From positions 7,041-71,040 of IMG/VR virus record IMGVR_UViG_2713896899_000007: DNA of 64,000 nucleotides. One strand, 5' to 3'. Numbering within the stretch: position 1 is the stretch's first letter; each line of letters opens with the position of its first letter. Source of the DNA: a virus. Its lineage: Duplodnaviria > Heunggongvirae > Uroviricota > Caudoviricetes. The position numbers and the translations under genes are program-made. Positions 24,317-56,781 of this stretch are shown in pieces. The notes below the pieces were generated by a model. It worked only from the letters and a program-made list of their open reading frames with translations. It was not told the DNA's origin and made no database searches.

Positions 24317-24351
24317 ATGATGTGCTCACTTGTTAGAAAGGAGCACATCAT
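24317..24351 (+). promoter_or_regulatory. 11-bp perfect inverted repeat occluding RBS and start codon
   Basis: ATGATGTGCTC (24317-24327) pairs with GAGCACATCAT (24341-24351); AAGGAG RBS and the ATG at 24350 lie in loop and stem. Confidence 0.4.
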
Positions 24352-24916
24352 GAGTTGGTTAAAAGAATTATCATTTGTTGACACCACTGGCGCTAAGAAA
24401 AATCATTCTTTCTGGAAAGTCAGCGATCCTTCTGATTTTCTTGTTGGTGCTAATGCTGCTTTTGAATTGCTTAACTTTTATCAACGTTATCCTGAAATGA
24501 AACACAGTCCACTCCTGTACAGAATAACAAACGATATGAATAGGTCTGGTTTATTATCAAGTGAGTCAGCGAAAGGCTTTTTTAGCAAAATTACGCCACA
24601 CATATCATTCGATGCAGCAAACGAAATTGATTGTCTATCCACGAAACCTCAAGAACAATTATCTGTACCACCTGAGAAAAAACAAAGACGAATTGCCAGC
24701 ATTGAAAATATATCGAAAGAGCTTCGCACAACAACGTTGAGGCTGCTGAACTTTCTTACGCTACTTAATTGGATAGATGATCAAACATTGATTCCATCAA
24801 CCGATGCGTTGGATAACAGAGTACTTAGGCTGAACAAAAAATCGCAATTTGGTTTTGTGTTCACCAAAAAAGGTGAAGATTTAATCAAAAGAAAATATAG
24901 ATTATTGAATGATTAA
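24350..24916 (+). CDS. Hypothetical protein (AT-rich island)
   Basis: RBS AAGGAG 8 bp upstream of ATG 24350; track start 24317 lies inside an 11-bp inverted repeat. Confidence 0.45.
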   Translation: MSWLKELSFVDTTGAKKNHSFWKVSDPSDFLVGANAAFELLNFYQRYPEMKHSPLLYRITNDMNRSGLLSSESAKGFFSKITPHISFDAANEIDCLSTKPQEQLSVPPEKKQRRIASIENISKELRTTTLRLLNFLTLLNWIDDQTLIPSTDALDNRVLRLNKKSQFGFVFTKKGEDLIKRKYRLLND

Positions 24917-24923
24917 TAGTCTA

Positions 24924-24970
24924 CATGCAGGTGTATGAGAGCACCTGCATGTGATATTCATCACATTTTT
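24924..24970 (+). terminator. Hairpin(s) plus T-run after gene 24350..24916
   Basis: 10-bp stem CATGCAGGTG/CACCTGCATG followed by short stem GTGAT/ATCAC and T6. Confidence 0.4.
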
Positions 24971-25061
24971 TGAAGTACACACCTCCGGCTGAAAAAATTT
25001 CTTGATTGGCAGAACGATATTTGTAGGCTTTTCAATTGATAACTAAGGTCGGATACTGTAG

Positions 25062-25550
25062 ATGAGTATTTCCATAAACAAAATAATTAACTCTTTACGA
25101 CATAAAATATCACATGGAAAAGATGTTCTTTTTAAAGACAAATATTATCTATTCAACCTAGAGTTGTACAAATGCACAAAATTTTATATCACTCGGAACC
25201 GTAAATATTCAGCTTCAATCACAAAAGACATGAAGAAAATCTCTTCAGAAGAGTACTTCATATCACATATTTATATCTACCCATTTAAATTAGAACCATT
25301 AAATATAATTCTTCCAACAATAAAAGGGGTTGAACTTGAAGGTTATACTTTAAGCTCTAACTTTAATGATATGGGTGTACAAAAACCAGGGACAAGGTCA
25401 TACTACGCCTACAAAGTAAAATGCAATAACTACAACGCACTTAACATGCTAATCAGCAAACTTGAAACGGAGATAGTCGAAGGAAATCTAAATGATGATC
25501 ATGAAAAATTAGAACAAATAGAAAAACTTAGAAAGTGTGATGTTAAATAA
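25062..25550 (+). CDS. Hypothetical protein (AT-rich island)
   Basis: 162-aa ORF, very low GC, Lys/Asn/Ile-rich. Confidence 0.4.
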   Translation: MSISINKIINSLRHKISHGKDVLFKDKYYLFNLELYKCTKFYITRNRKYSASITKDMKKISSEEYFISHIYIYPFKLEPLNIILPTIKGVELEGYTLSSNFNDMGVQKPGTRSYYAYKVKCNNYNALNMLISKLETEIVEGNLNDDHEKLEQIEKLRKCDVK

Positions 25551-26165
25551 TTGGATTATCATGATATGAAAATGAAAATTTCGTTACTCCTTGCTTGTAT
25601 ATGCCTCCCGGCGTTTTCCGCCAACGCATTATCAGATTTCGTCTCTGACATGCAAAAAACGTACAGCATGTTTACCTCCGAAGACGTAGTAGAATACAAA
25701 TCACGAGGTCTGAATCAGCCAGTTTGGTTCAGATTCTCAGACAACGCAGAAGAAACAATACTTAATGGAGGAAAAGAAAGATTACGGTTGCAAATTAACG
25801 GGACCGCTGTACCAGAAAACGTTAATGTAAACTCTGACGAAGCCATGAAGCCATCTGGAATTGTTTTAGAAGTTCAAGACGGCACACTTTACTGTGATGA
25901 AATGGCTACAACAGGTTGCCAAGTAAACATTAGGGTTGGCAATGAAGAGCCTATCGTTACTTACGCCAAGGCTGAAGGGAATACAAGTGGAAAGGTATTG
26001 TTTATCGATGAAAATATCTCAAAACGTATCGTTCGTGACATACAGAAAACAGCTAACTCTAAATCCGTCGATAAAAAAATCTATGTTGAGGTTCCCTTCT
26101 TTGTCGTTGGTAACAAAGAATTTAAATTTGGGTTGCTGAAAACACCTCTAAGAGTATCAGAATGA
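25551..26165 (+). CDS. Secreted/periplasmic protein of unknown function
   Basis: Signal-peptide-like MKMKISLLLACICLPAFSANA (probable start 25566); two Cys in mature part. Confidence 0.5.
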   Translation: MDYHDMKMKISLLLACICLPAFSANALSDFVSDMQKTYSMFTSEDVVEYKSRGLNQPVWFRFSDNAEETILNGGKERLRLQINGTAVPENVNVNSDEAMKPSGIVLEVQDGTLYCDEMATTGCQVNIRVGNEEPIVTYAKAEGNTSGKVLFIDENISKRIVRDIQKTANSKSVDKKIYVEVPFFVVGNKEFKFGLLKTPLRVSE

Positions 26166-26686
26166 GAACATTGGACATCACCTACGGCATACCGGCTGAA
26201 GTCTGGCCGCGAGACTACGAACATGCTGAAAACATACTTATGTTCTGGCGGAAGAACAACATTCCTGTAAGAGTCACGCTTGAAGACGGTCAGGTGTTTT
26301 GCATGTACGTTCAGGGGACAATGCCTTCCCGCAATAAGCTAGATTTATGCCCGCTTCCATATGATAAAGAAAATCGTATAAGACTCCCACTTGAGCGCAT
26401 TAGCACAATTGAATCAGGTGTAATCGATGGCATTGCTCGCGAGTTCAAAGGTAGGCTAACAATACATCCAGACTATGTTGACAATCAGCCATCACGCCGT
26501 GACTTTTTTGCGATATGTCGCAAGGCTTATCAAAACGACCAATCTATAAGGGTCTACATGGCAGACGGTCGTGAAATTGAAGGGGTGTCAAGAGGCGTTG
26601 ATGCTTGCCAGGTCACTCTTAAGTTAGAAGACGGCAGAAAAATACTTGTTTTCTTCGATTGGGTTGAACGAATCCTTCCATTTTAA
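26162..26686 (+). CDS. Hypothetical protein with internal duplicated segment
   Basis: Repeated VRVTLEDGQVFCMYVQG / IRVYMADGREIEG / VTLKLEDGRKILVFF units; ATGA overlap with upstream gene. Confidence 0.45.
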   Translation: MRTLDITYGIPAEVWPRDYEHAENILMFWRKNNIPVRVTLEDGQVFCMYVQGTMPSRNKLDLCPLPYDKENRIRLPLERISTIESGVIDGIAREFKGRLTIHPDYVDNQPSRRDFFAICRKAYQNDQSIRVYMADGREIEGVSRGVDACQVTLKLEDGRKILVFFDWVERILPF

Positions 26687-30773: not shown

Positions 30774-31085
30774 TCAGGCTATTGCCATCACTGATGCTCT
30801 CTGAATTTCTTGTTGGGCCACGCGGTTAACTTCCATCAAAGCCAGTTCGAGCTGATGTTCCGGCCACATTCTTTGAAATGCCACCCAGCCTTTTCCACGC
30901 TGGCGACGAACATTCATTACATAACGAGTAAAGGTGTTTTTATCGAAAGACACCGCTGTTTCACGGAACAGACGAATAGAGGTTCCATTGGCAACGATGT
31001 CCAGCAAAGTTAATTGAGCAACTAGCGCAGGCTTCTCTTTTCGCTTCTGGTCTTTGTCCAGACCAAGAACCAATGATTTTTTCAT
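30774..31085 (-). CDS. Hypothetical early protein
   Basis: Start moved to ATG 31083-31085 (MKKSLVL) so the gene follows leader motif 31095-31120 and an ACGGAG RBS. Confidence 0.4.
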   Translation of the reverse strand: MKKSLVLGLDKDQKRKEKPALVAQLTLLDIVANGTSIRLFRETAVSFDKNTFTRYVMNVRRQRGKGWVAFQRMWPEHQLELALMEVNRVAQQEIQRASVMAIA

Positions 31086-33136: not shown

Positions 33137-33445
33137 TTACCAGTTCCAGCACTCAAGCCCTTCAACGACCGGCGCACCACAATCAAAATGTACAGAGTCA
33201 AAGCCTACATCAAGTACTTTCTGAATGTTAGCAATCGCGCCTTCGGATATACCATATCGACGCAAGTCGTCTTTCCAGACATCATCCTGTAACCCGGCGT
33301 GGACAATACAACCGCCATCAATTTGTGAAACCCAATCCAGCTCATTGCTTGCGATCATGAATCGGCGAGCATCTTCCTCTGATGTATGAGATGAACTGAT
33401 CAATGCCACCTGGTAGGCTTGGGTAATGTTCAACATTTCAACCAC
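33137..33445 (-). CDS. Hypothetical early protein
   Basis: 102-aa ORF; upstream both motif variants and a GATAAT hexamer (33448-33510). Confidence 0.4.
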   Translation of the reverse strand: MVEMLNITQAYQVALISSSHTSEEDARRFMIASNELDWVSQIDGGCIVHAGLQDDVWKDDLRRYGISEGAIANIQKVLDVGFDSVHFDCGAPVVEGLECWNW

Positions 33446-33496
33446 TCCAAAACAAGTTGTTTTCTTATGTGGCTTATTATCTCTAACAACAAAAGG

Positions 33497-33636
33497 CAGA
33501 AAACAAATTGTTTTAGGTACTGTGTAAATCAGAAGGGATTGTGTCTATATGAAAATGCCCGGCGTGTTGCCGGGCATTGCGAAGAGAGGTTGTTTAATTA
33601 CTTAACCTGGTGGCCAGGTTTAGCACCGGCATCCGG
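33497..33636. repeat. metG 3'-end repeat copy 1 (promoter motif + terminator + last 13 codons of metG)
   Basis: 140 bp, about 88 percent identical to 34367-34506; carries [12 protein letters not shown]-stop in frame. Confidence 0.8.
33554..33578 (-). terminator. Terminator hairpin within metG-end repeat copy 1 (serves the degenerate HD gene)
   Basis: AATGCCCGGC...GCCGGGCATT stem with U-run on minus strand. Confidence 0.5.
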
Positions 33637-34327
33637 CTGCAGGATGGGAGGTTACGTTCGCGCTATGTTGATATTCTGATTGACGCCATTTGTGCCAAAT
33701 CATCTCCTTATAGGATTCATATTGCGTTCGGTACTCTGGCTTCAAGTCAGATATGCCTTTATTCACTACCGCTCGTACGTTTACTAATAATTCGTGCTCA
33801 ATGCCTTTACTCTCTAAATATTCTACAACACCAGCATCGGGGCCAATTGCCCTGCCGTTAAAGACCATTTCCAGCATAAGCTCTGTTTCAGCAAAATAGA
33901 TAGGTGAGGAACCAGGTGCACACAGCTTAATAGCAGTAAGATTGTCCAACAGGTCGGCCAATTTAATCATTCGCGTCTGCATATCCAACGTCTTTTGCAA
34001 TTCGCGAACATTAATAATGAATCTCGCAAGACTATCGCCGTCGTCTGGTTTGGCAACGTTTGCCAGCGCCAGTACCATCTCAGCTACACGATTCCCGAAA
34101 TACTCGCGTACCATTTCGATAGTGATATGGGTATCTTCAATAACACCATGTAATAATGCAGCAGCCTGCATTTCGACAGTGCCTCCGTGCCAAGCAACAA
34201 TCTCACGCACAGAAACTGGGTGTGTAACGTAGTCTTCCCCCGTATATCTACGCTTCTTACCTACACCACCATACACTCCAACGGCAAACATATGAGCTTT
34301 ATCAACAATCGACATAATTTGCTCCAT
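33620..34327 (-). CDS. RelA/SpoT-type HD hydrolase paralog with substituted catalytic residues (probable pseudo-enzyme)
   Basis: About 65-70 percent identical to the hydrolase at 42687..43328, but AH-GQ became VY-GK and both HD became HG (WHGG, LLHGVIEDT); C-terminus runs into the duplicated metG 3' fragment in another frame. Confidence 0.6.
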   Translation of the reverse strand: MEQIMSIVDKAHMFAVGVYGGVGKKRRYTGEDYVTHPVSVREIVAWHGGTVEMQAAALLHGVIEDTHITIEMVREYFGNRVAEMVLALANVAKPDDGDSLARFIINVRELQKTLDMQTRMIKLADLLDNLTAIKLCAPGSSPIYFAETELMLEMVFNGRAIGPDAGVVEYLESKGIEHELLVNVRAVVNKGISDLKPEYRTQYESYKEMIWHKWRQSEYQHSANVTSHPAAGCRC

Positions 34328-34366
34328 TATTTTGTTAATACTGTTACTCTAACTGATAATAGAACG

Positions 34367-34506
34367 CAGAAAACAAATTGTTTTAGGGGCTGAGTAAATC
34401 AGAAGGGATTGCGTCTATATGAAAATGCCCAGCAATACGCTGGGCATTGTGAAGAATGGTTGTTTAGTTACTTAACTTGGTGGCCTGGTTTAGCACCAGC
34501 ATCCGG
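34367..34506. repeat. metG 3'-end repeat copy 2 (authentic metG terminus and terminator)
   Basis: Direct repeat of 33497-33636, offset 870 bp. Confidence 0.8.
34420..34448 (-). terminator. metG rho-independent terminator (within repeat copy 2)
   Basis: AATGCCCAGC...GCTGGGCATT stem followed by UUUU on minus strand, 20 bp after metG stop. Confidence 0.6.
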
Positions 34507-36501
34507 GCTTAACAGGAAGATATCTTTCCCGCCGGGGCCAGCAGCCATCACCATGCCTTCGGAGATACCGAAGCGCATTTTACGCGGAGCCAGGTTAGCC
34601 ACCATAATTGTGTGACGACCAATCAGTGCCTGTGGGTCTGGATAAGCAGAACGGATGCCTGAGAAGACATTACGCTTTTCACCACCGAGATCCAGTGTCA
34701 GGCGCAACAGTTTGTCAGAACCTTCAACAAACTCCGCGTTTTCAATCAGCGCCACACGCAGGTCAACTTTGGCGAAGTCGTCAAAGGTGATGGTTTCCTG
34801 AATCGGGTCGTCAGCCAGTGGGCCAGTAACTGGCGCGGCAGTAGCTTTCACTTCTTCTTTGGATGCTTCCACCAGTGCTTCCACCTGTTTCATATCGATA
34901 CGGTTATACAGTGCCTTGAACGGATTCACTTTATGGCCCAGCAGCGGTTGCTGGATACCATCCCAGGTCAGTTCTGTATTCAGGAATGCTTCTGCACGTT
35001 CAGTCAGTTTCGGCAGTACCGGTTTCAGATACGTCATCAGCACGCGGAACAGGTTAATGCCCATAGAGCAAATCGCCTGCAGATCTGCATCGCGACCTTC
35101 CTGCTTCGCCACCACCCACGGAGCCTGTTCATCGACATAGCGGTTAGCCAGGTCAGCCAATGCCATGATTTCACGGATAGCTTTACCAAATTCGCGGCTT
35201 TCCCATGCTTCGCCAATCACTTCAGCGGCATCAGTAAAGGTTTTGTACAGTTGCGGGTCAGCCAGTTCGCTTGCCAGCACGCCGTCAAAACGCTTGTTGA
35301 TAAAGCCTGCATTACGGGAGGCCAGGTTAACCACTTTGTTAACAATATCGGCATTCACTCGCTGAACGAAATCCTCCAGGTTGAGATCGATATCATCAAT
35401 GCGCGAAGAGAGTTTCGCAGTGTAGTAGTAACGCAGGCTGTCAGCGTCAAAATGATTCAGCCAGGTGCTGGCTTTAATAAAGGTGCCGCGAGACTTGGAC
35501 ATCTTCGCACCGTTCACCGTCACATAGCCATGAACAAACAGGTTGGTCGGCTTGCGGAAGTTGCTGCCTTCCAGCATGGCAGGCCAGAACAGACTGTGGA
35601 AGTAAACGATATCTTTACCGATGAAGTGGTACAGCTCGGCGGTGGAGTCTTTCTTCCAGTATTCATCGAAGCTGGTGGTATCGCCGCGCTTGTCGCACAG
35701 ATTCTTGAAGGAACCCATGTAGCCAATCGGTGCGTCCAGCCAGACGTAGAAATATTTACCCGGCGCGTTCGGAATTTCAAAACCGAAGTAAGGTGCGTCG
35801 CGGGAGATATCCCACTGTTGCAGACCAGATTCAAACCACTCCTGCATTTTGTTTGCCACCTGCTCCTGCAACGCACCGCTGCGGGTCCATGCCTGCAACA
35901 TTTCGCTGAAAGAGGGCAGATCAAAGAAGAAGTGTTCAGAATCACGCATTACCGGGGTAGCACCAGAAACCACCGATTTCGGCTCGATCAGTTCAGTCGG
36001 GCTGTAGGTCGCGCCACAAACTTCACAGTTATCGCCGTATTGATCTGGCGCTTTACATTTCGGGCAGGTGCCTTTCACAAAACGATCCGGCAGGAACATG
36101 CCTTTTTCCGGGTCGTACAACTGAGAGATAGTGCGGTTTTTAATAAAACCGTTCTCTTTCAGGCGAGTATAAATAAGCTCAGACAGCTGGCGGTTCTCTT
36201 CGCTGTGCGTCGAGTGATAGTTGTCATAGCTGATGTTAAAGCCTGCGAAATCAGTCTGGTGTTCCTGACTCATTTCGCCAATCATCTGCTCCGGTGTGAT
36301 ACCAAGTTGCTGTGCTTTCAGCATGATCGGCGTACCGTGGGCATCGTCGGCACAGATGAAATTAACCTCGTGGCCGCGCATTCGCTGGTAACGAACCCAG
36401 ACATCAGCCTGGATGTGCTCCAGCATATGGCCGAGGTGGATTGAGCCGTTAGCGTACGGCAGCGCGCACGTCACCAGAATTTTCTTCGCGACTTGGGTCA
36501 T
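34468..36501 (-). CDS. metG: Methionine--tRNA ligase
   Basis: 677 aa from ATG 36499-36501 ([26 protein letters not shown]...KMSKS...[10 protein letters not shown]); near-identical to E. coli MetG over full length as I recall it; the track ORF is extended upstream. Confidence 0.95.
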
Positions 36502-36658
36502 AGTAGGCATTACTTCTTTGTAGTGAAAAGGGGCTTGATAGTAACAAAATGGCCTTATGTCTGCCATGTGATAACAGCATTTCTCATAAATGATTAAATG
36601 TCGTAGCTGGAGTACACTACAAGGCGACAATTGCGCAAATTAAAATAAAGGAGACGGG

Positions 36659-37759
36659 ATGAGCGAGTCCAAATCGCCGGATGCCCTGAGAGCAATGGTA
36701 GCCGGTACGCTGGCTAATTTTCAGCACCCAACCCTGAAACACAACCTGACTACGCTTAAAGCGTTACACCATGTTGCGTTGATGGATGACACACTGCATG
36801 TCGAACTAATCATGCCTTTCGTGTGGAATAAGCCTTTTGAAGACCTGAAAGAGCAATGTAGTGGTGATCTGCTCCGTATCACTGGCGCAAAGGCTATTGA
36901 CTGGAAGCTGTCGTACAACATTGCCACGCTTAAGCGCGTCAAAAACCAACCAGGCATTAATGGTGTTAAGAATATTATCGCCGTAAGCTCAGGCAAGGGC
37001 GGTGTAGGCAAATCGTCCACAGCAGTAAACTTGGCACTGGCGTTGGCTGCTGAAGGTGCGAAAGTTGGTATTTTGGATGCCGATATCTACGGGCCATCAA
37101 TACCAACCATGCTGGGCGCGGAAAACCAACGTCCAACCTCACCGGACGGTACTCACATGGCACCTATCATGTCTCATGGCCTGGCAACCAATTCAATTGG
37201 CTATCTGGTCACCGACGACAATGCAATGGTGTGGCGTGGACCGATGGCCAGCAAGGCGCTGATGCAGATGTTGCAGGAAACACTGTGGCCTGATCTGGAC
37301 TATCTCGTTCTCGATATGCCGCCGGGCACTGGTGATATTCAGTTGACGCTGGCGCAGAACATTCCTGTAACTGGTGCGGTTGTGGTAACTACGCCGCAAG
37401 ACATCGCGCTGATCGATGCGAAGAAAGGCATTGTGATGTTCGAAAAAGTCGAAGTGCCAGTACTGGGTATCGTTGAAAACATGAGTGTGCATATTTGCAG
37501 TAACTGCGGTCATCACGAGCCAATTTTTGGCACCGGTGGCGCACAGAAACTGGCCGAGAAATACAACACGCAGTTGTTAGGCCAAATGCCACTTCATATC
37601 TCTCTTCGTGAAGATCTGGATAACGGAACACCAACCGTTATTAGTCGTCCAGATAGTGAATTTACGGCTATTTATCGTGACCTCGCAGATCGCGTTGCTG
37701 CCCAAATGTATTGGCAAGGTGAAGTAATACCTGGCGAAATCGCATTCCGCGCAGTGTGA
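36659..37759 (+). CDS. apbC: Fe-S cluster carrier ATPase Mrp/ApbC
   Basis: 366 aa, SGKGGVGKS P-loop, CxxC motif; near-identical to E. coli Mrp; divergent from metG as in Escherichia chromosomes. Confidence 0.95.
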   Translation: MSESKSPDALRAMVAGTLANFQHPTLKHNLTTLKALHHVALMDDTLHVELIMPFVWNKPFEDLKEQCSGDLLRITGAKAIDWKLSYNIATLKRVKNQPGINGVKNIIAVSSGKGGVGKSSTAVNLALALAAEGAKVGILDADIYGPSIPTMLGAENQRPTSPDGTHMAPIMSHGLATNSIGYLVTDDNAMVWRGPMASKALMQMLQETLWPDLDYLVLDMPPGTGDIQLTLAQNIPVTGAVVVTTPQDIALIDAKKGIVMFEKVEVPVLGIVENMSVHICSNCGHHEPIFGTGGAQKLAEKYNTQLLGQMPLHISLREDLDNGTPTVISRPDSEFTAIYRDLADRVAAQMYWQGEVIPGEIAFRAV

Positions 37760-37764
37760 TAAAA

Positions 37765-37785
37765 AGGTGGTGCATTGCACCACCT
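37765..37785. terminator. Bidirectional hairpin between apbC and the UmuD'-like gene
   Basis: Perfect 9-bp stem AGGTGGTGC/GCACCACCT with 3-nt loop; A5 tract on plus side gives U5 for the minus-strand transcript. Confidence 0.55.
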
Positions 37786-37796
37786 AAACAGTTCTC

Positions 37797-38186
37797 CTAC
37801 ATCACAGGACAATCATCAAACTCGCCACTTCTTGCGTCGTTGATAATGTGAGTGATCACACCAAACACGGCATTGCTGCCCGTGCATCCATCGTCATCCT
37901 TTGGCAATGCTTCCTTCTTACCAGTTCTTAAATCCTCCAGATGCTGACGTGGATACTTCCGGTATCTTTTTACGCGATATTCCCCATCCAGAGCGCATAC
38001 AAGCAGAGAACCATCAACCGGGGTAAGTGAGGAATCGACCACCAGCAATGCGCCCTGCAATATTCCCTCACGATGATGGCTGTCAGCCGCTCTCATGAAG
38101 TAGGTCGCTGAAGGATGTCTAATTATCTGCTGATCAAGAGAAATACGGCTCTCAGCATAATCCGCCGCAGGAGAAGGGAAGCCCAT
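37797..38186 (-). CDS. UmuD'-like S24 peptidase (begins at the position equivalent to the UmuD Cys24-Gly25 cleavage site)
   Basis: MGFPSPAADY... aligns with UmuD from Gly25; Ser (AADS) and Lys (RVKR) of the catalytic dyad retained; in-frame stop 5 codons upstream of ATG; LexA box 20 bp upstream. Confidence 0.75.
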   Translation of the reverse strand: MGFPSPAADYAESRISLDQQIIRHPSATYFMRAADSHHREGILQGALLVVDSSLTPVDGSLLVCALDGEYRVKRYRKYPRQHLEDLRTGKKEALPKDDDGCTGSNAVFGVITHIINDARSGEFDDCPVM

Positions 38187-38202
38187 AGCGTTTTGCCCTC
38201 AA

Positions 38203-38222
38203 TACTGTTCATTTATACAGTA
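38203..38222 (-). promoter_or_regulatory. LexA operator (SOS box) upstream of UmuD'-like gene
   Basis: TACTGTTCATTTATACAGTA = CTGT-N8-ACAG palindrome, 16/20 match to E. coli LexA consensus; about 20 bp upstream of ATG 38186. Confidence 0.75.
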
Positions 38223-38358
38223 TACATGAAAGAAGCTCACTCAGTGCAACTGATCGGTACATAGCACCAGACAAAGGAACATTATTTTCTCGAACAAGAA
38301 AAGGTAGAAAACAAATTGTTTAAGGCCACAGCTAGTGGCCTTAATGGAGAAGGGATGC

Positions 38359-38922: not shown

Positions 38923-39751
38923 ATTTCTCCATAGCTCTTAGCCAATAAACATGGCCACTAGGCATAGTGATGTGAGGCTCGCCAAACTCTTCTCCATGCA
39001 CATCAAAGATGTCCCCAACAGAGAATTGGGGGATTTCTGTGCCGTTTTCACCTATATGCGTAATTCGTATACGTTTCGGTTGAGATTCGCCCCCTTTGAG
39101 CGAGTTGTTCACGGCTCTTGCAATCTTCTCCCGCAATTGCTGCGTTCCGTGATACGTAACCGCAATATCCCTCAACTCGTTCACCAGTTCTCGAATCTGG
39201 TGATCTTTAAGCTCATTATTTGAGTGATTGGCAACAACTCTGGTTAATTCACCCTTGTCTTTTGCTCTTACGTATGCAGCTCTTGTGCATTCGACCCATG
39301 TATTACCGCCTACATTAACTTCGTAGATTAGGCTGGACTTATCTGTCAATTCGGAACAAATACGGGCCGTGGTCTGGCAACTAGAGCATTCGCAGTTATC
39401 GCGGAAACCGTGGTCTACTGGCTTCGGTTTCACATCATCAACTTTTTCTACCCTATTGGAATTTAAATACTTCGAAGCCTTGCTATGCCAATCGCTGGTT
39501 TTAGGATCTTGTCCATCCATCAAACGCCAGGCTTCAGCGATTAACTCATAACTAGTGACTGTAGCTTCCTGAGCATCACCAATAAGTCGTGTAATCTCTC
39601 TTTCAAGCCGACCGCCTAACTCCGTTTTAGTGCAATGTTCTGACCAATCGCCAGCCTCAAGAAGCGCGAGAATGTTTAAAATATCGTCCAATAGAACGGT
39701 AGTATTTTCGACTTCCTTCTGAAGCTCTCCGGCTGCTGATTTATGCGTCAT
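38897..39751 (-). CDS. Zinc-binding protein, possible primase N-terminal module
   Basis: Cys cluster DNCECSSCQTTARIC; overlaps the Toprim ORF by 26 bp in another frame. Confidence 0.35.
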   Translation of the reverse strand: MTHKSAAGELQKEVENTTVLLDDILNILALLEAGDWSEHCTKTELGGRLEREITRLIGDAQEATVTSYELIAEAWRLMDGQDPKTSDWHSKASKYLNSNRVEKVDDVKPKPVDHGFRDNCECSSCQTTARICSELTDKSSLIYEVNVGGNTWVECTRAAYVRAKDKGELTRVVANHSNNELKDHQIRELVNELRDIAVTYHGTQQLREKIARAVNNSLKGGESQPKRIRITHIGENGTEIPQFSVGDIFDVHGEEFGEPHITMPSGHVYWLRAMEKYGDKWEVL

Positions 39752-40002
39752 TCATCATCCTCATCACAGGTTGAGAGTAGTGGGTTAGTCATTCGTCCTA
39801 CTTGAGTGGCGTAGCCACGCCGACAGAGATTGCGCAGCACACTGTATATTTCGAACATCTCGGTTCGTTCATCGCCAACATCAAGCTCAGATGCCATAGC
39901 GTGGCATTCAGCCGCGAGAGCCGATATTTTCTGAAATAACTCTGCTTTATTCACTGTTCGACTCCTGCGGCGGTTCTGGTAGTGGCATCCAGTGTGTGAC
40001 AT
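39748..40002 (-). CDS. Hypothetical small protein
   Basis: 84-aa ORF in tightly packed minus-strand early operon. Confidence 0.3.
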   Translation of the reverse strand: MSHTGCHYQNRRRSRTVNKAELFQKISALAAECHAMASELDVGDERTEMFEIYSVLRNLCRRGYATQVGRMTNPLLSTCDEDDE

Positions 40003-40246
40003 TGCTAATCAGACCATATTCATTAGTTTGAGGATGATTGCCGTTATCGTCTCCGTATTTAAGACTCTCCATAAAGCCATAATGCCTATCACCATTAACG
40101 CTCACAAAGCCGTAATAAGCAGGTATAACGCCGATCTCACACGTAACCAGCAAAGGAAAACTAGTTCTCCAATTTAGCTCGCCGATTACAGGCATCTGCT
40201 CACTACAGCTTATCCAACCATCAGGAGTAACCGGATAGTTGCGCAT
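39947..40246 (-). CDS. Hypothetical small protein
   Basis: 99-aa ORF, overlapping neighbours. Confidence 0.3.
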   Translation of the reverse strand: MRNYPVTPDGWISCSEQMPVIGELNWRTSFPLLVTCEIGVIPAYYGFVSVNGDRHYGFMESLKYGDDNGNHPQTNEYGLISNVTHWMPLPEPPQESNSE

Positions 40247-40596
40247 TGCGACCTTAAATGCCTCATTTTCAGATTATTGAACTGACGCCCGTTTAGAGGG
40301 CCATGTTCTGTCAACATGTTGTGTAATTTCCATGCCGCGTCGTTAACTTCGTTGGATGATCTGGGAGGCAACTTGCAAGTTTGGCTTACAGGTTCTGCAC
40401 TATCAGCTTCGCGCCGCTTCTGTAGCTCTGCTGCCATCGCTCTCACGACTTCAACTGGTGCCCTTGCAGCAAACTCTATGTTGGTGATCAGCTCATTAAG
40501 ATATTGCTCGCCTGGATACTGTTTCTTATCGGTTATAGTAGTCATATCACTCTCCTTTTCCCTGAAGCATAGCGGCACGGCAGGCGTTCCATCCAT
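40210..40596 (-). CDS. Hypothetical protein
   Basis: 128-aa ORF in early operon. Confidence 0.35.
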   Translation of the reverse strand: MDGTPAVPLCFREKESDMTTITDKKQYPGEQYLNELITNIEFAARAPVEVVRAMAAELQKRREADSAEPVSQTCKLPPRSSNEVNDAAWKLHNMLTEHGPLNGRQFNNLKMRHLRSQCATIRLLLMVG

Positions 40597-40969
40597 CTGC
40601 GTAACAATCTCTGTGCGTCTTGAAATTTGTCACCGCTCTTGGTACATCCTTTACATCTATTTCATCAGGCACAATCGGCGCTGGAGGGGCTGCGTAGACC
40701 TCAATAACTCCATTATCAATAGGCCACTCCCCATCCTTGATGTAGTCACTTGTGCCGTCAACTTGCTGTTCTGCAATGTGGAATGCACCTATTGGTTTTG
40801 CTTCCAGCGAGGCCAGTGCAATTCGTGCCAGTTTTAGATCTCGTTCAACCATCTCAATAACAACTTTGCAGTCCGCACCTTCTTTACTAACACGTCCTTT
40901 CAAGTCTTCCAGATAACTAACGCTTTCGCGTGCATGGGAGATTAACTGTTCTTTGGTTAAGGTGGTCAT
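40547..40969 (-). CDS. Hypothetical protein
   Basis: 140-aa ORF in early operon. Confidence 0.35.
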   Translation of the reverse strand: MTTLTKEQLISHARESVSYLEDLKGRVSKEGADCKVVIEMVERDLKLARIALASLEAKPIGAFHIAEQQVDGTSDYIKDGEWPIDNGVIEVYAAPPAPIVPDEIDVKDVPRAVTNFKTHRDCYADGWNACRAAMLQGKGE

Positions 40970-41154
40970 TAGGCAGCTCTCTCAACAACAAGCAATTCGT
41001 CGTAGTCATAATCAGTTTCGGAACCATCCGTACCGAACAGAGTCACTTTGTCATCTTCCATCCAAAAAGATTTAACCGCACATTGTTGACCTTTAGATGT
41101 TATGAGCACATCACCAGGGATTACGTCTTCAGCGCGAACTTCTAGTGTTCTCAT
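40969..41154 (-). CDS. Hypothetical small protein
   Basis: 61-aa ORF with start/stop juxtaposed to neighbours. Confidence 0.3.
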   Translation of the reverse strand: MRTLEVRAEDVIPGDVLITSKGQQCAVKSFWMEDDKVTLFGTDGSETDYDYDELLVVERAA

Positions 41155-41696
41155 CGTGCTGACCCCTCTTTGGTTAAAATGCCTGCTGCAATGCTGTTTA
41201 TGATGCTGTCAGTGCATGGAGTAGAAAGCTGGGCATCTCCAGCAATTTTCATGACTTCGACATCCGCATATCGAATACCGAGGTGTATCAGACCTGCTAT
41301 ACCTGACTTAAGTCGAACATTTTCCATAAACAGATCCTTTTCCCGCTGTTTAACGGTCTCCAGCTCAACACGCAGTTTCTCAAGCGTTAGGGCCATCTCT
41401 ACGTTCTCCTGCTCAAGACGTCGGATGTGTTGCTGTCTTTTATCCATTTCGTCCAGCAGTGCAATCACATCGGGATCACTATCATCAACTACTGTTACGC
41501 GTGATTTTTCATAATGTTCGTCTGCAAAAGTACGCCCTATCTTAAAATATCCGTCATCACCCTCACCGGAACAGGCATAAACAACATGTGCTCCAGATAT
41601 GCGCTGTATTGACATTTCCTCGCCACAAACAGAGCATTTAGGCGCTGGTTTTGGTGAATAACGTTCACGTAACGTCAGGTAGTAAATCTCGCTCAC
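41151..41696 (-). CDS. Hypothetical zinc-ribbon / coiled-coil protein
   Basis: CSVCGEEM...YACSG zinc-ribbon-like N-terminus, central coiled coil. Confidence 0.4.
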   Translation of the reverse strand: MSEIYYLTLRERYSPKPAPKCSVCGEEMSIQRISGAHVVYACSGEGDDGYFKIGRTFADEHYEKSRVTVVDDSDPDVIALLDEMDKRQQHIRRLEQENVEMALTLEKLRVELETVKQREKDLFMENVRLKSGIAGLIHLGIRYADVEVMKIAGDAQLSTPCTDSIINSIAAGILTKEGSAR

Positions 41697-46987: not shown

Positions 46988-47002
46988 GTGTTTTCCTTAA
47001 TG

Positions 47003-47028
47003 CTTAAACAAGTTGTTTTCTTATTGGC
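47003..47028 (-). promoter_or_regulatory. Early promoter/leader motif instance
   Basis: CTTAAACAAGTTGTTTTCTTATTGGC, followed in the gene direction by AAGGAAAACAC-ATG. Confidence 0.45.
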
Positions 47029-47284
47029 TTTATTGTGATGTGGCATATAAGGGGAGCAAGCTAAACGTAAAGGTGCAAACTCTCTATTTTGGTCAACGAA
47101 ACACAAGGGCCATTTGGCCCTTGTCATTAACACTTTGCTTTACGGACTAGCGGATAGGCGAAGTAGATCGCCAAACCAATGAGGACGCCATCAGAAATGA
47201 CAGACATCATCTTTCCCGTAAAATCCACCAACACCGCCATCACCAGAAGAGCAATGACGGTCACAAGCCGGAATCTCTCAAGCA

Positions 47285-47710
47285 TTAGAGATAAGCATCC
47301 AGTGACAACTGAAGCGCCTGGGCGATCTTTTTCAGTGCCTGCTCTTCTTGTTCACCAATGCCGTCCTGGTCGGCAATATCAAGGCACAGACACAGAACAT
47401 CGACCGCCTCTGGAGTGCCCGCAATATCAGCCAGCTCACGCATAGCCTGTGCATTAGCGGAACGAGGGGACGCTTCGTAACGAGCACGGATATTGGCGCT
47501 CATTTGGGCAATCTCACCAGCAAACGGAGAAAACGCAGGCAGAGCTGCAATTGTCTTCTCAAGAATGGCAATTTCTTTTGCGTCACATGTGCCGTCGGCA
47601 TAGGAGATCATGTACGCGCCCCACACGGTGGCCTCAACCGCATCACGGTTCTCCATTTTTTTGACTTCGATAACTGCTTTACGAGTTTTCTTTTTGAAGA
47701 AACCTAACAT
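47285..47710 (-). CDS. TerB-like domain protein (putative)
   Basis: 141 aa; helical with YADGTCDAKEIAILE and DQDGIGEQEEQALKKIA segments typical of TerB-fold proteins; conserved leader upstream. Confidence 0.35.
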   Translation of the reverse strand: MLGFFKKKTRKAVIEVKKMENRDAVEATVWGAYMISYADGTCDAKEIAILEKTIAALPAFSPFAGEIAQMSANIRARYEASPRSANAQAMRELADIAGTPEAVDVLCLCLDIADQDGIGEQEEQALKKIAQALQLSLDAYL

Positions 47711-47765
47711 GTGTTTTCCTTTTGTTATTTGTCAAAACAAGTTGTTTTCTAGTTAAATAAATTGC

Positions 47766-47996
47766 TTACGCAAAGACGGTCAATGCATATGCACTAACAA
47801 CCGTCAGAAGTAACCAAGTACCGAACCGACTGGAAAAATAAAAATCCCAACTACACGAGCCAAGGTCATGCCAGCCTGAAACTGGAGATCGCCAGAGCAA
47901 ACAAGTTTTATAATGTTCGATACCCAACCGGCGGCCATGAGGGCCAGAATTGCCAGCCAAATTTTTCCAAAGTGATTTGAAAACCAGTTCATACAA
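47766..47996 (-). CDS. Small membrane protein (putative)
   Basis: 76 aa with two hydrophobic stretches. Confidence 0.3.
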   Translation of the reverse strand: MYELVFKSLWKNLAGNSGPHGRRLGIEHYKTCLLWRSPVSGWHDLGSCSWDFYFSSRFGTWLLLTVVSAYALTVFA

Positions 47997-48001
47997 CCGC
48001 C

Positions 48002-48496
48002 TTAGTCACAGCATGATCCTGAGTAACTGGATGAATTTGAGGTATCGCATCCACCGCCATCCCATCCAGAGTGACAGGACGCTCCACTGGAGTGGTGGTA
48101 ATTGTCGTCGACGAAGGTGTGGTGATGGATGAATCCGGCATCAAAAGGCTCTGACCGGCTGGAACTGCTACCGTCGCCAGTGAAACTATAATGAGAACGT
48201 AGGCCATTGGTTTCAGCCTCTTTCTTTGAAAATTTTCCATTCGAACTGTCCTTGTTGTTTTTCTCCTTCACTAAAGGCCGTGCATTTTTCGCTTCGCGTG
48301 AAGAACCAGAGGCAACAATCGCCCCCACGTTCGCAACAACTGACGCTTGATTATCTAAACGTTCATTCAGCAACCGAACGGTAGTCTCTAGTTCATCAAG
48401 ACGTGACATAACACGACCGCTAAATAATTCGGCCAAAATTTGACGTAAAGAACGAGGACGTTTAGTTGCAGAAGTGAAATAGGTTTGACGTGCCAT
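48002..48496 (-). CDS. Hypothetical protein (alternative: embedded secreted peptide 47989..48240 is the real product)
   Basis: 164-aa ORF whose C-terminal half is low complexity; a second ORF in another frame has a convincing signal peptide MAYVLIIVSLATVAVPAG. Confidence 0.3.
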   Translation of the reverse strand: MARQTYFTSATKRPRSLRQILAELFSGRVMSRLDELETTVRLLNERLDNQASVVANVGAIVASGSSREAKNARPLVKEKNNKDSSNGKFSKKEAETNGLRSHYSFTGDGSSSSRSEPFDAGFIHHHTFVDDNYHHSSGASCHSGWDGGGCDTSNSSSYSGSCCD

Positions 48497-48644
48497 GTGG
48501 ACTCCATCCAGTGTCAGAAAGAGTTGCGGCTGGCGATTGCCAGCCGCCTTTCTCGTTCCATCCTGGAACTGTGTCTTACCGACACATTGTCATCCTGACG
48601 CCGATAAGATACATGATTTAAAATAATAGGTAAATACTTACTTA

Positions 48645-49289
48645 CTAATTGTTATAAACAAAACCAATATCTTTCTTGTGAGGCATATCTGCTGCTGAAA
48701 AAGCTGCGATCTTCGCGAGTCGATCACATATTTCATTTTCACGATGCCCGGCGTGACCTTTAACCCACTTCCAGCGAACATTATGTCGACTTGCGGCCTC
48801 ATCCAGACGCTTCCACAGATCAACATTCTTTACCGGTTTTTTGTCAGAAGTCATCCATCCATTGCGTTTCCACCATTTCATCCACTGTGTCATGCCGTTT
48901 TTCAGATACTGGCTATCAGAGTGCAAAATAACGTTGCATGGATATTTCAAACGCTCCAGCCCGATAAGTGCCCCCATCATCTCCATGCGGTTATTGGTGG
49001 TGCTATGAAAACCATCTGAGAACTCGCGTTCCTCACCACGATACTGGAGAACTATACCGTAACCGCCCGGGCCACCCGGATTTTTAAGGCAAGAGCCATC
49101 ACTGAAGATTTTCACGGTTTTAAGCTGGGGATTGAACTCTACGACAGGCGTTGTGGGATTGGTGCGGGGAGAATTTTTGTTTTTGTCTTTTTTGCGAGTT
49201 TTTGCTTGCGATCGGGCTGGTGTCTTCGACGTCATATAAACTCCTGAATCAAGCGCCGCGCCGATTTTTTTCCTCGCGCGTGCGCACAC
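48645..49289 (-). CDS. rnhA: Ribonuclease HI with basic N-terminal extension
   Basis: [27 protein letters not shown]...[16 protein letters not shown]...HSDSQY...[18 protein letters not shown] matches RNase HI catalytic core; about 45-aa Lys/Thr/Pro-rich N-terminal extension. Confidence 0.8.
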
Positions 49290-49817
49290 GCGTGCGTGTA
49301 ATAATTATTAAAATAAACAAATTACTTCCCAGTACAGGTTTTTATAAACCTGAACTGAACGAACGAAGTGAGTGAAGTTCACCTCGAACGAAGTGAGAGG
49401 TTGTCTTTTCAGGTAATACTCTCCCAGGGAGGTGAGTATAAAATTCCTCACCAACCTGGTCGTTTCATAACCTGAAAAGCTATGGTCTAAGTCTACTGCC
49501 AGCTTAGACTTGGGAAGTTATGGATGACAGCACCCCAGAACCGAGATCTTCCCACACTTTATGAAGGGGAGTACTGGATTCAACCTCTCGAAACACCCCA
49601 GACTCGACAATCATAAAGTGACCCTTGTCTCTGCTCACTTTGGTTCCCCCTTCCCCGACACCTAAACGGCACCGGTTCTACGCTGGTAGTGAGCTTTTTT
49701 AAACCTGACGCCAGTGACGCTTACCCCCACCCATCAGGTCGAGTCTCCAGTCTATGACTGGAAACTATCAGATCTTAGCACTTACAATTCATCTTATGAA
49801 TAGTTTGTACTTATCTA

Positions 49818-50048
49818 TCATTTCGATTGATTATTTTCTCGACCATGTAGTTGAACATTCAAGGCAAACACCTCGTTGATCAACTCACCTAAAAGCTGTT
49901 CAACAAGTTCGCGATGCTCCCCAAGATGCAAGCACTTAATTGCCCATTCGTACAAGTTGAAAGCCTGCTCGCGATCTTTCATCATTTCACGAGCCTTAGC
50001 CAGAAAATCGCTCTCTACGAGCGCAACAACATTGGTCGGGTATGACAT
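49818..50048 (-). CDS. Hypothetical small protein
   Basis: 76-aa ORF. Confidence 0.35.
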   Translation of the reverse strand: MSYPTNVVALVESDFLAKAREMMKDREQAFNLYEWAIKCLHLGEHRELVEQLLGELINEVFALNVQLHGRENNQSK

Positions 50049-50130
50049 GTTAGTTTTCCTTAAAGTGGTTCATAAAATCGATTTTAAAGCGTCTGAGAAG
50101 GGGTTCTAGTGGATTCTGTAGTGGTGTTCA

Positions 50131-50210
50131 GGTCTGGGAGTCTCTGATACAAAACAGCCTGCTTCCGTATATTAATAATTAATATGTAGTTATTTATATA
50201 CAGAAGCAGG
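50131..50210. repeat. Long palindromic element, copy 2
   Basis: GGTCTGGG then CCTGCTTCCGTATAT (50158-50172) / ATATACAGAAGCAGG (50196-50210), one mismatch, AT-rich loop. Confidence 0.65.
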
Positions 50211-50233
50211 TTAATTACACTCGCCAGAACAAA

Positions 50234-50827
50234 CTAAGCAGCCTTCTTTGATGGTCTTTTTTTCCTGACCACATTCGCAGGATCATACCCTCCCAGACTT
50301 TTCATTACGTCCAAAGGGATCTTGCTTATAGAGTGCCCAGCGTCCTGACAGAATCCTCGAAAAACAACGAGCATACTGCCACCGGGGTTGATGTTTACTT
50401 CTACCTGACCCAAATTGACGTCAGGCTCGACAAACGCTACGCGGCCACCAGACAGAATAATCGTCTCATTCGCATACTCTGTTGCACGCTCATACCACTT
50501 TGTATCGAGGGATTGAGGAATTAGCATCACTGTTGTAACTCCGCGAGCCTGCTCACGTATAGCAGCATCAATCCAGGGGGAGATTTTGGAGTAGGGTGGA
50601 TTGAGGAAGGCAATTGTACCTGGCTGTCCCCATTCAGATTTCAAAGCATCGCGCTCAACGCCTATGAAATTAGGCAGCTTTGCATTGTCCTTGTTGCAGG
50701 CAACGTCAACATCAAATGTCACTCCAAGATAACGTTGAATGGCAGAAAACAGCCAATCAGGTGTTCTCCAGAGGTCACGAAGAGAGTTGTCGCGCTTTCG
50801 CTGTTTGATTTTTTCGGCTGCAATCAT
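50234..50827 (-). CDS. Phage-type DNA N6-adenine methyltransferase (Dam family)
   Basis: LWRTPDWLF, FLNPPYS catalytic motif, 197 aa. Confidence 0.65.
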   Translation of the reverse strand: MIAAEKIKQRKRDNSLRDLWRTPDWLFSAIQRYLGVTFDVDVACNKDNAKLPNFIGVERDALKSEWGQPGTIAFLNPPYSKISPWIDAAIREQARGVTTVMLIPQSLDTKWYERATEYANETIILSGGRVAFVEPDVNLGQVEVNINPGGSMLVVFRGFCQDAGHSISKIPLDVMKSLGGYDPANVVRKKRPSKKAA

Positions 50828-51009
50828 CTTCTTTCTCGATAGGTAAGTGATTACCTATTTTTGCATTTGATTTTATGTATGGCAATCAAATAAAACACGC
50901 CAGAAATGCGAACAAGAAGCTCTCTGGCGCGTTTTTGTGGTGCTGGGTATGGGTTAGCTTACCCAGCACTATAAAGCTCTCTATGGGCTTTATTTTCAGT
51001 AGGGGAACG

Positions 51010-51819
51010 TCATCCAATAGTGTACTCCGCGACAAACTTCTTAACGATCGGTGATTCTTCGTTCAATGTTAGATTTCCACCGTCTCTAACAGCAATTCCT
51101 GTAGCTGGAAATACAGCCATCATTTGCCCAGCCTGAGTTGACGCAGTGTTAAGCGGATACGGTTTTTCTGGATTGCTCATTAAAGCAATCTTAATACTAT
51201 TACTTGTAGCCTTCCTTTCTGTGAGAAGGTGTCTCATGGAAATTACCGTGTAAACACTAATATCTGGACCTCCGCTAAACCAATTAAGAAGGTTTAATAT
51301 CTTATCCTTTGCTTTGACAGGCGCGTTTTCGTAAGCGTCTAAGAAAATATCTTTTTCTAAGCCTGCTTTATTGAAAAACGAATCATCTTTATCACTTAAA
51401 GTAAAACGAGGACCTCTTGCAGTACGAGCTTTTTTATTTGTATTGCTATCATTTGACTGTTGAACTTTTAATTCATCATTAACCTCAACACAATCTTCAA
51501 CCTCAATAAATCCCAATTGTTCTGGCTCGTTTTCGGCAGCTTCACCACTTTCAGTGTTAATTACGTTTATAGGCTCATGCGCTAACTCCAACTCATTTAA
51601 AGCGGAGCTGAAATCACCTGCTTTTTCTTCATTGAACAGTTCTTCGGCAACATCATCAGAACTCATGGCTACGCCAGCATCGAGGCCTAGAAGCAGATCG
51701 TCAATATCATCAGTATTCTCAACCTGTGCAGCTTTTTTTACCGGTTCATCAAGTGATTGCAACATAGCTGTCAGTTCGTCCAGATCATCATTTGTCATTA
51801 CATTTTCAACCGAACTCAT
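51010..51819 (-). CDS. Acidic protein of unknown function
   Basis: N-terminal about 120 aa with very high Asp/Glu content; C-terminal basic/hydrophobic domain. Confidence 0.4.
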   Translation of the reverse strand: MSSVENVMTNDDLDELTAMLQSLDEPVKKAAQVENTDDIDDLLLGLDAGVAMSSDDVAEELFNEEKAGDFSSALNELELAHEPINVINTESGEAAENEPEQLGFIEVEDCVEVNDELKVQQSNDSNTNKKARTARGPRFTLSDKDDSFFNKAGLEKDIFLDAYENAPVKAKDKILNLLNWFSGGPDISVYTVISMRHLLTERKATSNSIKIALMSNPEKPYPLNTASTQAGQMMAVFPATGIAVRDGGNLTLNEESPIVKKFVAEYTIG

Positions 51820-51979
51820 GTAAGTCTCCTTCTGTTTGGTTACATTTGCGTTTCGATGGCTACATTTTGACTAAACCTATCAGGCGGAAAAGTATTAAAT
51901 ACAGGCAGGAAATGATTGAAAGGCGACTGTTCTTTAAAAGAAAGCCTACTTTAAACTCTCTTTAAAGTAGGCTTTTGCT

Positions 51980-52537
51980 TTACACAATTTCAGAGGGTAA
52001 TTTAAAAAATCCGTACTTATTACGTGCCTTAAAGAAGCATTGCATCATTAAGTTTGTGTCATATAAGGCACTATGTGCTTTGGCATGATCGTATATAAAG
52101 CCAAGAGAGAAGGCCAACTCTTCAAGGCGGGGACGTTTACCGTCTTCTGTGGCCCACAATCCCGATAACATAGTATCTATAACAGGAACGTCTGGCAGTC
52201 TTACTCCATACCCTGAAAACTCGTGTCGAATAAATGGTATATCAAACGCTTCACCGTTATGAGCAATCCACGCACTACATGCCCCCATATAAGCGCCAAT
52301 TTCGCTGGCATGATTTGACAACAAAGGTTCAGCTGCGAGCTGTTCCAATGAAATGCCATGAACGGCTTGAGCTTTCGGATCTATGTTTCTGCGAGGGTTA
52401 AAACGCATCTCCAGACTATCAATATGTCTCTGTGTCTCCAGTTCATAGCGGGTAATTGCGATTTCAATAATTTTATGACCAGCAAGGAAATCCAGTCCCG
52501 TAGACTCGATATCGATGCCTGCAACAATCGTTGTCAT
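51980..52537 (-). CDS. DEDDh 3'-5' exonuclease (DnaQ-like)
   Basis: Exo I AGIDIESTG, Exo II HNGEAFDIPFI, Exo III HSALYDT. Confidence 0.7.
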   Translation of the reverse strand: MTTIVAGIDIESTGLDFLAGHKIIEIAITRYELETQRHIDSLEMRFNPRRNIDPKAQAVHGISLEQLAAEPLLSNHASEIGAYMGACSAWIAHNGEAFDIPFIRHEFSGYGVRLPDVPVIDTMLSGLWATEDGKRPRLEELAFSLGFIYDHAKAHSALYDTNLMMQCFFKARNKYGFFKLPSEIV

Positions 52538-52546
52538 CAGAACTCC

Positions 52547-52966
52547 TTACAACTTCTTAGCGCCCTTAAGTAGTGCGCTACGTACAAATTGAGCCGCTTT
52601 TTTCAAAGTTTCTTCACTGGTTTCACAGACAATCGGATCTTTCCACTTACCTGACGCAGTGTTGAGAATATTGATTTGGTTGCTATCCAGACAAACAGAG
52701 ATATAAAGCACCGTGCCACCAGCCAGCATCAAATGCATAGGAAACAGAGGCTTTTTACTGTCTTCACTGAACTGAGACATGGCGATGTTAATGGCTTCAC
52801 CTACTTGTGCGCCAACAAGCCCCTGCGCAGTTTCGAATATGGCACGAATAGCCAGACGAGCCTCTCGATCGGTCATAAGCGACCGGGAATGTTCGTCCGC
52901 TACACGAATCAAAGCCTCTGTTGTTTTCCGATCCAGTTCATCTTCAAGCAACATTTCACTAAACAT
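52547..52966 (-). CDS. Hypothetical protein
   Basis: 139-aa ORF. Confidence 0.4.
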   Translation of the reverse strand: MFSEMLLEDELDRKTTEALIRVADEHSRSLMTDREARLAIRAIFETAQGLVGAQVGEAINIAMSQFSEDSKKPLFPMHLMLAGGTVLYISVCLDSNQINILNTASGKWKDPIVCETSEETLKKAAQFVRSALLKGAKKL

Positions 52967-53027
52967 TTTTTATCCTTAACCCATTTTGAGAGTTTTATTG
53001 TCGCAATGTCGAAGAGGCGAACAATTT

Positions 53028-53672: not shown

Positions 53673-54148
53673 TACGACCTTCTGTATACGATCTGCGAAA
53701 AGCCAGGCTCTTCCTCGCTGGCTCGTTGGGTATAAGCTGTTTCAACAGGCACAAAGCCTAAGTTACGCATCATGCTTGCCGGGAAGAATGCATCGGCGTT
53801 TGGTACATCAACGCCGATGTGGGAGAGCCAAATCTCTTCAACATGCGGCATGAATAGCGAGTAAATTTGTTCCCCGCCAATCACCCACACAGGCTCTGGT
53901 AATCGCAACACATCATCCACACCAGCAGGGTAGAATCCATTTGGTACAAAGCCATGAGAGCGCGTCAAAACGAGGTTATGACGCTCTGGAAGAGGGCGTT
54001 TGAGACTTTCCATCGTTTTACGCCCCATAACGACAGTGGCGTTTTTGGTGAGTCTCTTAAATAGCTTCAGATCGGTAGAACAACGCCAGGGCAGTTCGTT
54101 CGCTATGCCGATCTCATAGTTACGGCCAACAGCAGCTATCATCTTCAT
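53672..54148 (-). CDS. folA: Dihydrofolate reductase
   Basis: MIAAVGRNYEIG...LPWR...VVMGRKT...VIGGEQIY pattern typical of DHFR; 158 aa. Confidence 0.85.
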   Translation of the reverse strand: MKMIAAVGRNYEIGIANELPWRCSTDLKLFKRLTKNATVVMGRKTMESLKRPLPERHNLVLTRSHGFVPNGFYPAGVDDVLRLPEPVWVIGGEQIYSLFMPHVEEIWLSHIGVDVPNADAFFPASMMRNLGFVPVETAYTQRASEEEPGFSQIVYRRS

Positions 54149-54558: not shown

Positions 54559-54559
54559 A

Positions 54560-56704: not shown

Positions 56705-56781
56705 GCTAGTTTTGTTCCTTCTTAATTCTTGTGATCCATTGTGGCCCAGCGTTGCCAGGCCACATAATGCTTTGTATCGGT

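Follow-up and report, generated by a model that had tools for sequence, protein, structure and literature searches.

A humD gene with a predicted LexA-controlled promoter and no umuC partner on an SSU5-like Escherichia coli phage-plasmid

The closest described relative of the gene analysed here is humD of bacteriophage P1. P1 HumD was the subject of a 1999 paper by McLenigan et al. (J Bacteriol 181:7005). In the GenBank record of P1 (AF234173), the HumD product (AAQ14181) is described as 'DNA repair; functionally complements E. coli UmuD''. The record also places, 19 nt upstream of the start, a 'LexA binding site in the regulatory region of lxr and humD'. A published account states that P1 HumD functionally replaces UmuD' (PMC7092418). 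The humD family has been known since 1999 and is represented by a curated NCBIfam model; the exact protein described below has already been annotated, both in RefSeq and in the published genome of a phage-plasmid.

Here, we analysed a 64-kb stretch of viral DNA, referred to as the window, which carries a gene of this family. Judged from its sequence, the gene is an orthologue of P1 humD, predicted to encode a pre-cleaved UmuD'-type Pol V subunit. The original prediction of a pre-processed UmuD' analogue was borne out by the NCBIfam HumD equivalog model NF051876, which matched residues 1–129 of 129 and scored 219.8 bits, its cutoff being 120. The description fits the known P1 gene humD, and the prediction, though accurate, is a rediscovery. 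The model for UmuD proper (NF007621) scored 87 bits, under its cutoff of 110, and the N-terminal arm is absent. The protein further matched Peptidase_S24 in Pfam and the 'UmuD-like' PHROG 811 (2.7e-54), and its best solved-structure match was UmuD' (1UMU, E=6.7e-23), in which residue 1 of the chain (Gly25) falls on Gly2 of the window protein. The identical RefSeq protein, WP_000506720.1, goes by two names, 'HumD family translesion DNA polymerase' and 'S24 family peptidase'. A structure model computed with AlphaFold2 from 96 aligned HumD sequences, all at least 67% identical, reached a mean pLDDT of 41.5 and a pTM of 0.31 and was not used; the low confidence is probably due to the shallow alignment.

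With a probability of roughly 0.85, we read humD as a self-contained SOS-regulated cassette, made up of promoter, LexA operator, gene and terminator, whose product would join host UmuC as a Pol V-like translesion polymerase without RecA cleavage. The family assignment, the truncated start, the LexA box with its conservation among relatives, the lack of umuC and the selection on the coding sequence were observed, and the substitution for UmuD' is carried over from the P1 literature by analogy. We infer LexA binding, the promoter position, the interaction with UmuC and a benefit to the element. The coordinates of the features at the locus are collected in Table 1.

Table 1. Features of the humD locus in the window
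Feature	Position	Strand	Remarks
humD coding sequence	37797..38186	(-)	ATG-initiated ORF, 129 aa + stop
Codons of the family-specific C-terminal tail	37800..37841	(-)	aa 116-129, NDARSGEFDDCPVM; from alignments; UmuD is without the tail
Shine-Dalgarno sequence GAGGG	38196..38200	(-)	9 nt before the humD ATG; P1 counterpart GAGGT
In-frame TGA	38199..38201	(-)	Five codons 5' of the humD ATG
LexA (SOS) box TACTGTATAAATGAACAGTA	38203..38222	Read on minus strand	16 nt before the humD ATG
Probable -10 hexamer TATACT	38219..38224	(-)	Overlaps the first 4 nt of the LexA box; read by eye
Possible, weak -35 hexamer TTGCAC	38244..38249	(-)	19 nt upstream of the -10; common to the window and P1
Intrinsic terminator-like hairpin with T-run	37765..37785	(-)	Just past the humD stop codon
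Terminator-like hairpin	38320..38344	(-)	Separates the humD promoter region from the toprim gene upstream

The start of the protein is a feature that sets HumD apart from full-length UmuD. The 129-residue product begins with MGFPSPAADYAESR, and its translation reads MGFPSPAADYAESRISLDQQIIRHPSATYFMRAADSHHREG...SGEFDDCPVM. In a tblastn comparison, residues 25–139 of E. coli K-12 UmuD aligned with positions 38183..37830 at 42% identity. The original prediction had placed the start at the UmuD autocleavage point, and both this alignment and that with 1UMU support it, as M-GFPSPAADY aligns from UmuD residue 25. Met1-Gly2 of HumD is aligned to Gly25 of UmuD, and the protein has neither the N-terminal arm nor the Cys24-Gly25 cleavage site. 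An upstream in-frame start encoding a full-length UmuD, named at the outset as the case against this interpretation, is absent: on reading the sequence, no ATG, GTG or TTG was found between the in-frame TGA and the humD ATG. Given the position of this stop, only five codons ahead, a longer, full-length UmuD is excluded at the locus, and a mis-called start was ruled out.

The same start recurs throughout the family. A survey of a 5.8-billion-protein collection returned 561 clusters at E ≤ 1e-5, and the best 120 representatives were analysed. These were mostly 126–130 residues long and came from Escherichia, Citrobacter, Klebsiella, Enterobacter, Salmonella, Kluyvera and Trabulsiella; many of them already carry the name HumD. 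The M-GFPSPA start at residue 2 was present in 105 of these 120. A few database entries of 148–167 residues retain GFPSPA internally and look like upstream start calls.

The predicted near-consensus SOS box upstream of the gene was likewise found, and its 20-mer is identical (20/20) to the LexA site annotated in P1; three extra bases separate the box from the ribosome-binding site in P1 relative to the window. The arms of the box, TACTGT and ACAGTA, are perfect, and the three bases at which it departs from the palindromic consensus lie in the A/T spacer between them. No other site in the 64-kb window comes within three mismatches of the LexA consensus, and none occurred in 100 dinucleotide-preserving shuffles. 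A CTGT-N8-ACAG sequence at 30956-30971 was also considered as a LexA box and dismissed: its centre is GC-rich, and two matches to this loose pattern are within chance, a number reached in 14 of 100 shuffles. No sigma-70 promoter was called upstream of humD by a consensus scan, because the spacer between the hand-picked -35 and -10 hexamers measures 19 nt. The terminator-like hairpins on both sides make humD look like an independent transcription unit.

The position of the box is retained even where the surrounding DNA has changed. In the sibling SSU5-like plasmids pECAZ155_2 and pEND_Eco14033-3, the humD-apbC arrangement is the same and the upstream DNA is not alignable with the window. Their LexA boxes, TACTGTATGTGTATACAGTA and TACTGTATGTACATACAGTG, are different near-consensus sequences, each located at -36 to -17 and each overlapped by TATACT. 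In these SSU5-like plasmids, the entire region 5' of humD, the toprim gene included, has been swapped for unrelated DNA with the LexA box offset unchanged. We also compared eight stand-alone phage homologues (the window, P1, phiKO2, N15, HK140, HK639, Aeromonas pAEv1818 and Hafnia yong1), and a CTG-N10-CAG box was located within 120 nt upstream in seven of them. The evidence for LexA control of humD is as strong as sequence alone allows, and LexA would be expected to bind here.

Comparison of the DNA with P1 provides insight into the age of the gene. Homology extends only from about TTGCAC (-63) to the stop codon. Within the coding sequence, 59 of 390 nucleotides differ, giving a dS of 0.87, a dN of 0.042 and a dN/dS of 0.048; humD is under strong purifying selection. 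The restricted stretch of shared DNA and the high dS indicate that the window carries an old, separately evolving copy. The operator is unchanged between the two despite the long divergence of the coding sequences. The cassette was found in 660 PLSDB plasmids, in two identity bands, and humD moves as a discrete unit of about 450 bp on P1-like and SSU5-like phage-plasmids.

These observations bear on the idea that humD is decaying cargo, a 5'-truncated remnant of a full-length umuD left by a broken umuDC operon. Phages with a full-length umuD do exist (ENT39118 and Oslo), with umuC directly downstream, and the GDSM protease motif of the window protein has degenerated, as such a history would allow. 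The low dN/dS against P1 at so high a dS speaks against decay, as do the shared M-GFPSPA start across Escherichia, Citrobacter, Klebsiella, Enterobacter and Salmonella, the presence of a dedicated ribosome-binding site, LexA box and terminator, and the distribution of the cassette over hundreds of plasmids. We consider this reading extremely improbable; selection and conservation of the start effectively refute it.

The original prediction also held that HumD keeps the Ser/Lys dyad. Both residues are present, Ser36 (codon 38081-38079) aligned to UmuD Ser60 and Lys73 (codon 37970-37968) aligned to UmuD Lys97, but the dyad is not a requirement of the family. Among 103 size-matched close relatives, serine occupies the Ser60 position in 59, threonine in 42 and alanine in 2, and lysine is found at the Lys97 position in 101. 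The GDSM motif reads A-DSHH in the window protein, and its flanking G, D and M are not conserved among the 103 members. More distant phage members show Q/R, Y/R or T/M in place of the pair. From these alignments, retention of the dyad appears not to be obligatory in the HumD family, and the nucleophile is seemingly unconstrained for catalysis. The variation between S, T and A fits a protein with no further need of self-cleavage.

The retained Ser36 and Lys73, and the near-constant lysine among close relatives, could suggest that HumD is still an active S24 protease or a repressor-like protein, able to cut in trans such targets as host UmuD, LexA or a phage repressor. The substitutions at the nucleophile position, which extend to Q or Y in distant relatives, and the loss of the G-D and M of GDSM argue otherwise. 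The LexA model TIGR00498 scored 27 bits against a cutoff of 111, and no DNA-binding domain of LexA- or CI-type repressors was found; the 129 residues correspond to the S24 domain alone. A proteolytic role is therefore regarded as highly unlikely, and the reading of HumD as a ready-made partner of host UmuC is carried forward.

The gene had been predicted to be phage-borne, and the surrounding DNA agrees with this. A 901-bp segment around humD is 98–99.9% identical to a set of 107–113 kb E. coli plasmids, and collinearity extends over the whole window when it is compared with pECOPRAWN_FPGL2, a plasmid of 110 kb (94–99% identity, 58.4 of 64 kb covered). Genes for tail, tape-measure, capsid, portal and terminase proteins occur on this plasmid alongside those for RepB and ParB. 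HumD of the window is 100% identical to the protein of Escherichia phage Cyrano/pLF82. From the collinearity and this identity, the carrier is assigned to the SSU5-like E. coli phage-plasmids of the Cyrano/pLF82 and p09EL50 type. Cyrano is pLF82, described as an SSU5-like phage-plasmid forming siphovirus virions (PMC9928086).

A divergent pair of metG (methionyl-tRNA synthetase) and apbC/mrp genes, at 34468-37759 of the window, adjoins humD. These genes had suggested a chromosomal origin of the window, which was rejected on account of the collinearity with 108–110 kb phage-plasmids. At the nucleotide level, the phage-plasmid pair is ~90% identical to metG-apbC of the E. coli chromosome, with homology stopping at the apbC stop codon. 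Positions 33400-38000 are 100% identical to NZ_CP048306.1, and a match covering at least 80% of this stretch, which contains the metG-apbC arrangement, was present in 171 of 5426 complete E. coli genomes (about 3%). A literature search found no paper mentioning both metG and SSU5, and the occurrence of the pair beside humD on a plasmid may be a new observation.

Two further regions of the window vary. The 2.3-kb segment at 24351-26683 is absent from pECOPRAWN_FPGL2 and contains four small plus-strand ORFs of 199, 162, 204 and 174 aa, one with a signal-peptide-like N-terminus; it is probably a variable moron region. The segment at 39704-41177 lies beside DUF551-type genes, and within it 39704-40682 and 40971-41177 are not covered by the sibling plasmid, the counterpart of which consists of two DUF551 pseudogenes.

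Since UmuC is the partner with which HumD would act, we searched for it on the element. When E. coli UmuC served as a tblastn query on the window and on the complete sibling plasmid, no homologue was found, the best match having an E-value of 6.8 over 23 residues. The annotation of the sibling plasmid lists 130 features, and no Y-family polymerase is among them. The segments of the window not covered by pECOPRAWN_FPGL2 hold only ORFs of 204 aa or fewer. The claim that the gene has no umuC-like partner was upheld accordingly, and humD is a stand-alone gene without umuC in its operon.

The sibling phage-plasmid (NZ_JBVFKQ010000002.1, 48900-98000; partly window 47000-64000) encodes its own RecA, DnaE (Pol III alpha), DnaB-like helicase and primase. 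It also carries genes for an ATP-dependent ligase, NrdAB, thymidylate synthase, DfrA51 (a trimethoprim-resistant DHFR), RNase HI and hdeAB, as well as four tRNA genes; no tRNA genes were found in the 64-kb window. The presence of humD together with a phage RecA and DnaE may be of functional relevance.

The C-terminal end of HumD is the second region that distinguishes the family. Within the tail, E122 and D124 are invariant, and conservation is 90% or higher at F123, D125, C126, P127 and V128. Across the HumD protein, conservation is greatest in two segments, the N-terminal MGFPSPA and the C-terminal INDAR..EFDDCPVM. The near-invariant tail, NDAR..EFDDCPV ending in M, I or L at the carboxyl terminus, is missing in E. 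coli UmuD and in full-length phage UmuD. As this conserved tail has no counterpart in UmuD', HumD may act beyond simple UmuD' mimicry. The sequence EFDDCPVM loosely resembles the C-terminal tip of E. coli SSB, DFDDDIPF, a likeness that we treat as a lead and not as a result. We think it doubtful, on present evidence, that the tail is a docking peptide for pockets that bind SSB, or for the RecA or DnaE encoded by the element itself, which would be a phage-specific, undescribed function. If it were, the tail could drive the recruitment of HumD, or its competition, at stalled forks.

The products of umuD are known to interact with Pol III subunits and RecA filaments. HumD could accordingly be chiefly a modulator, tuning the SOS checkpoint, recombination or replication by forming a heterodimer with host UmuD, by binding the RecA filament or by contacting the replisome; it might then work with the element's own RecA and DnaE homologues. 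The replication and recombination genes of the complete sibling plasmid, namely those for RecA, DnaE, DnaB-like helicase, primase and ligase, and the acidic tail that UmuD lacks, with its loose resemblance to the SSB tip, are in keeping with such a role. The other most conserved segment, however, is the UmuD' N-terminal arm GFPSPAADY, which is required for UmuD' function, and for the P1 orthologue, functional replacement of UmuD' in mutagenesis has been reported. A chiefly modulatory role is unlikely in our judgement, and we return to HumD as a UmuD' substitute.

Under the UmuD'-substitute reading, the proposed mechanism is modelled on the account established for P1 HumD and would proceed as follows. 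In the undamaged cell, host LexA would sit on the box overlapping the -10 hexamer and keep humD off. Upon DNA damage, RecA* would inactivate LexA, and HumD would be made. As the protein starts at the equivalent of UmuD Gly25, self-cleavage mediated by RecA* would not be needed. HumD could then dimerise at once and assemble with host SOS-induced UmuC, RecA and ATP into a translesion polymerase of the Pol V type. The expected outcome would be earlier or stronger lesion bypass and mutagenesis, with damaged phage-plasmid DNA being replicated too. A point against this reading is that complementation by P1 HumD was reportedly efficient only from a high-copy plasmid.

The result mostly confirms textbook knowledge, namely that temperate phages and phage-plasmids of enterobacteria carry an SOS-controlled, pre-activated UmuD' able to use host UmuC. 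A pre-activated HumD would remove the delay that RecA cleavage imposes on error-prone synthesis. This is of modest relevance for stress-induced mutagenesis in E. coli lineages with multi-copy SSU5-like or P1-like phage-plasmids. The present analysis makes small additions, namely the spread of the ~450 bp cassette, the LexA box position kept across non-homologous upstream DNA and the C-terminal tail, the last of which may be a new observation.

Relative to the known systems, the window protein shares the S24 fold sequence with E. coli UmuD and UmuD' (PDB 1UMU, 1AY9 and 1I4V), and the alignment to UmuD proposed with the original prediction gave 42–44% identity from Gly25 onward. In both, the Ser and Lys residues are present and the gene appears, from its upstream sequence, to be controlled by a LexA box. 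HumD differs from E. coli UmuD in being without the 24-residue N-terminal arm, in lying outside a umuC operon and in having an additional conserved C-terminal tail of 12 residues.

The homologues of other phages (N15 gp26, phiKO2 gp23 and the UmuD-like proteins of HK140 and HK639) are 64–72% identical to the window protein. They share its pre-truncated form, beginning with M/V-GFPSPA, and have a C-terminal EFDD-P tail. Most have a LexA box upstream, and none is accompanied by umuC. They differ in having Thr at the nucleophile position, where the window protein has Ser. Their genes are located at a tail-fibre/partition or integrase junction, often beside a dinI homologue, which is absent beside humD of the window. 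In phiKO2 (L007 1181-1884), the UmuD'-like gene and a dinI homologue are divergent, with one annotated lexA site between them, and in HK140 (L009 910-1890), a dinI homologue likewise accompanies the stand-alone UmuD'-like gene.

P1 HumD is the nearest of these systems. It has 129 residues, as in the window, with 91–92% amino acid identity and the same M-GFPSPAADY start; the C-terminal tails are alike, and neither gene has a cognate umuC. The two differ in their carrier, a siphovirus-type SSU5-like phage-plasmid for humD of the window as against P1, and in their neighbours, which are a toprim gene upstream and a convergent apbC-metG pair downstream in the window, and a divergent lxr and a downstream phd-doc in P1.
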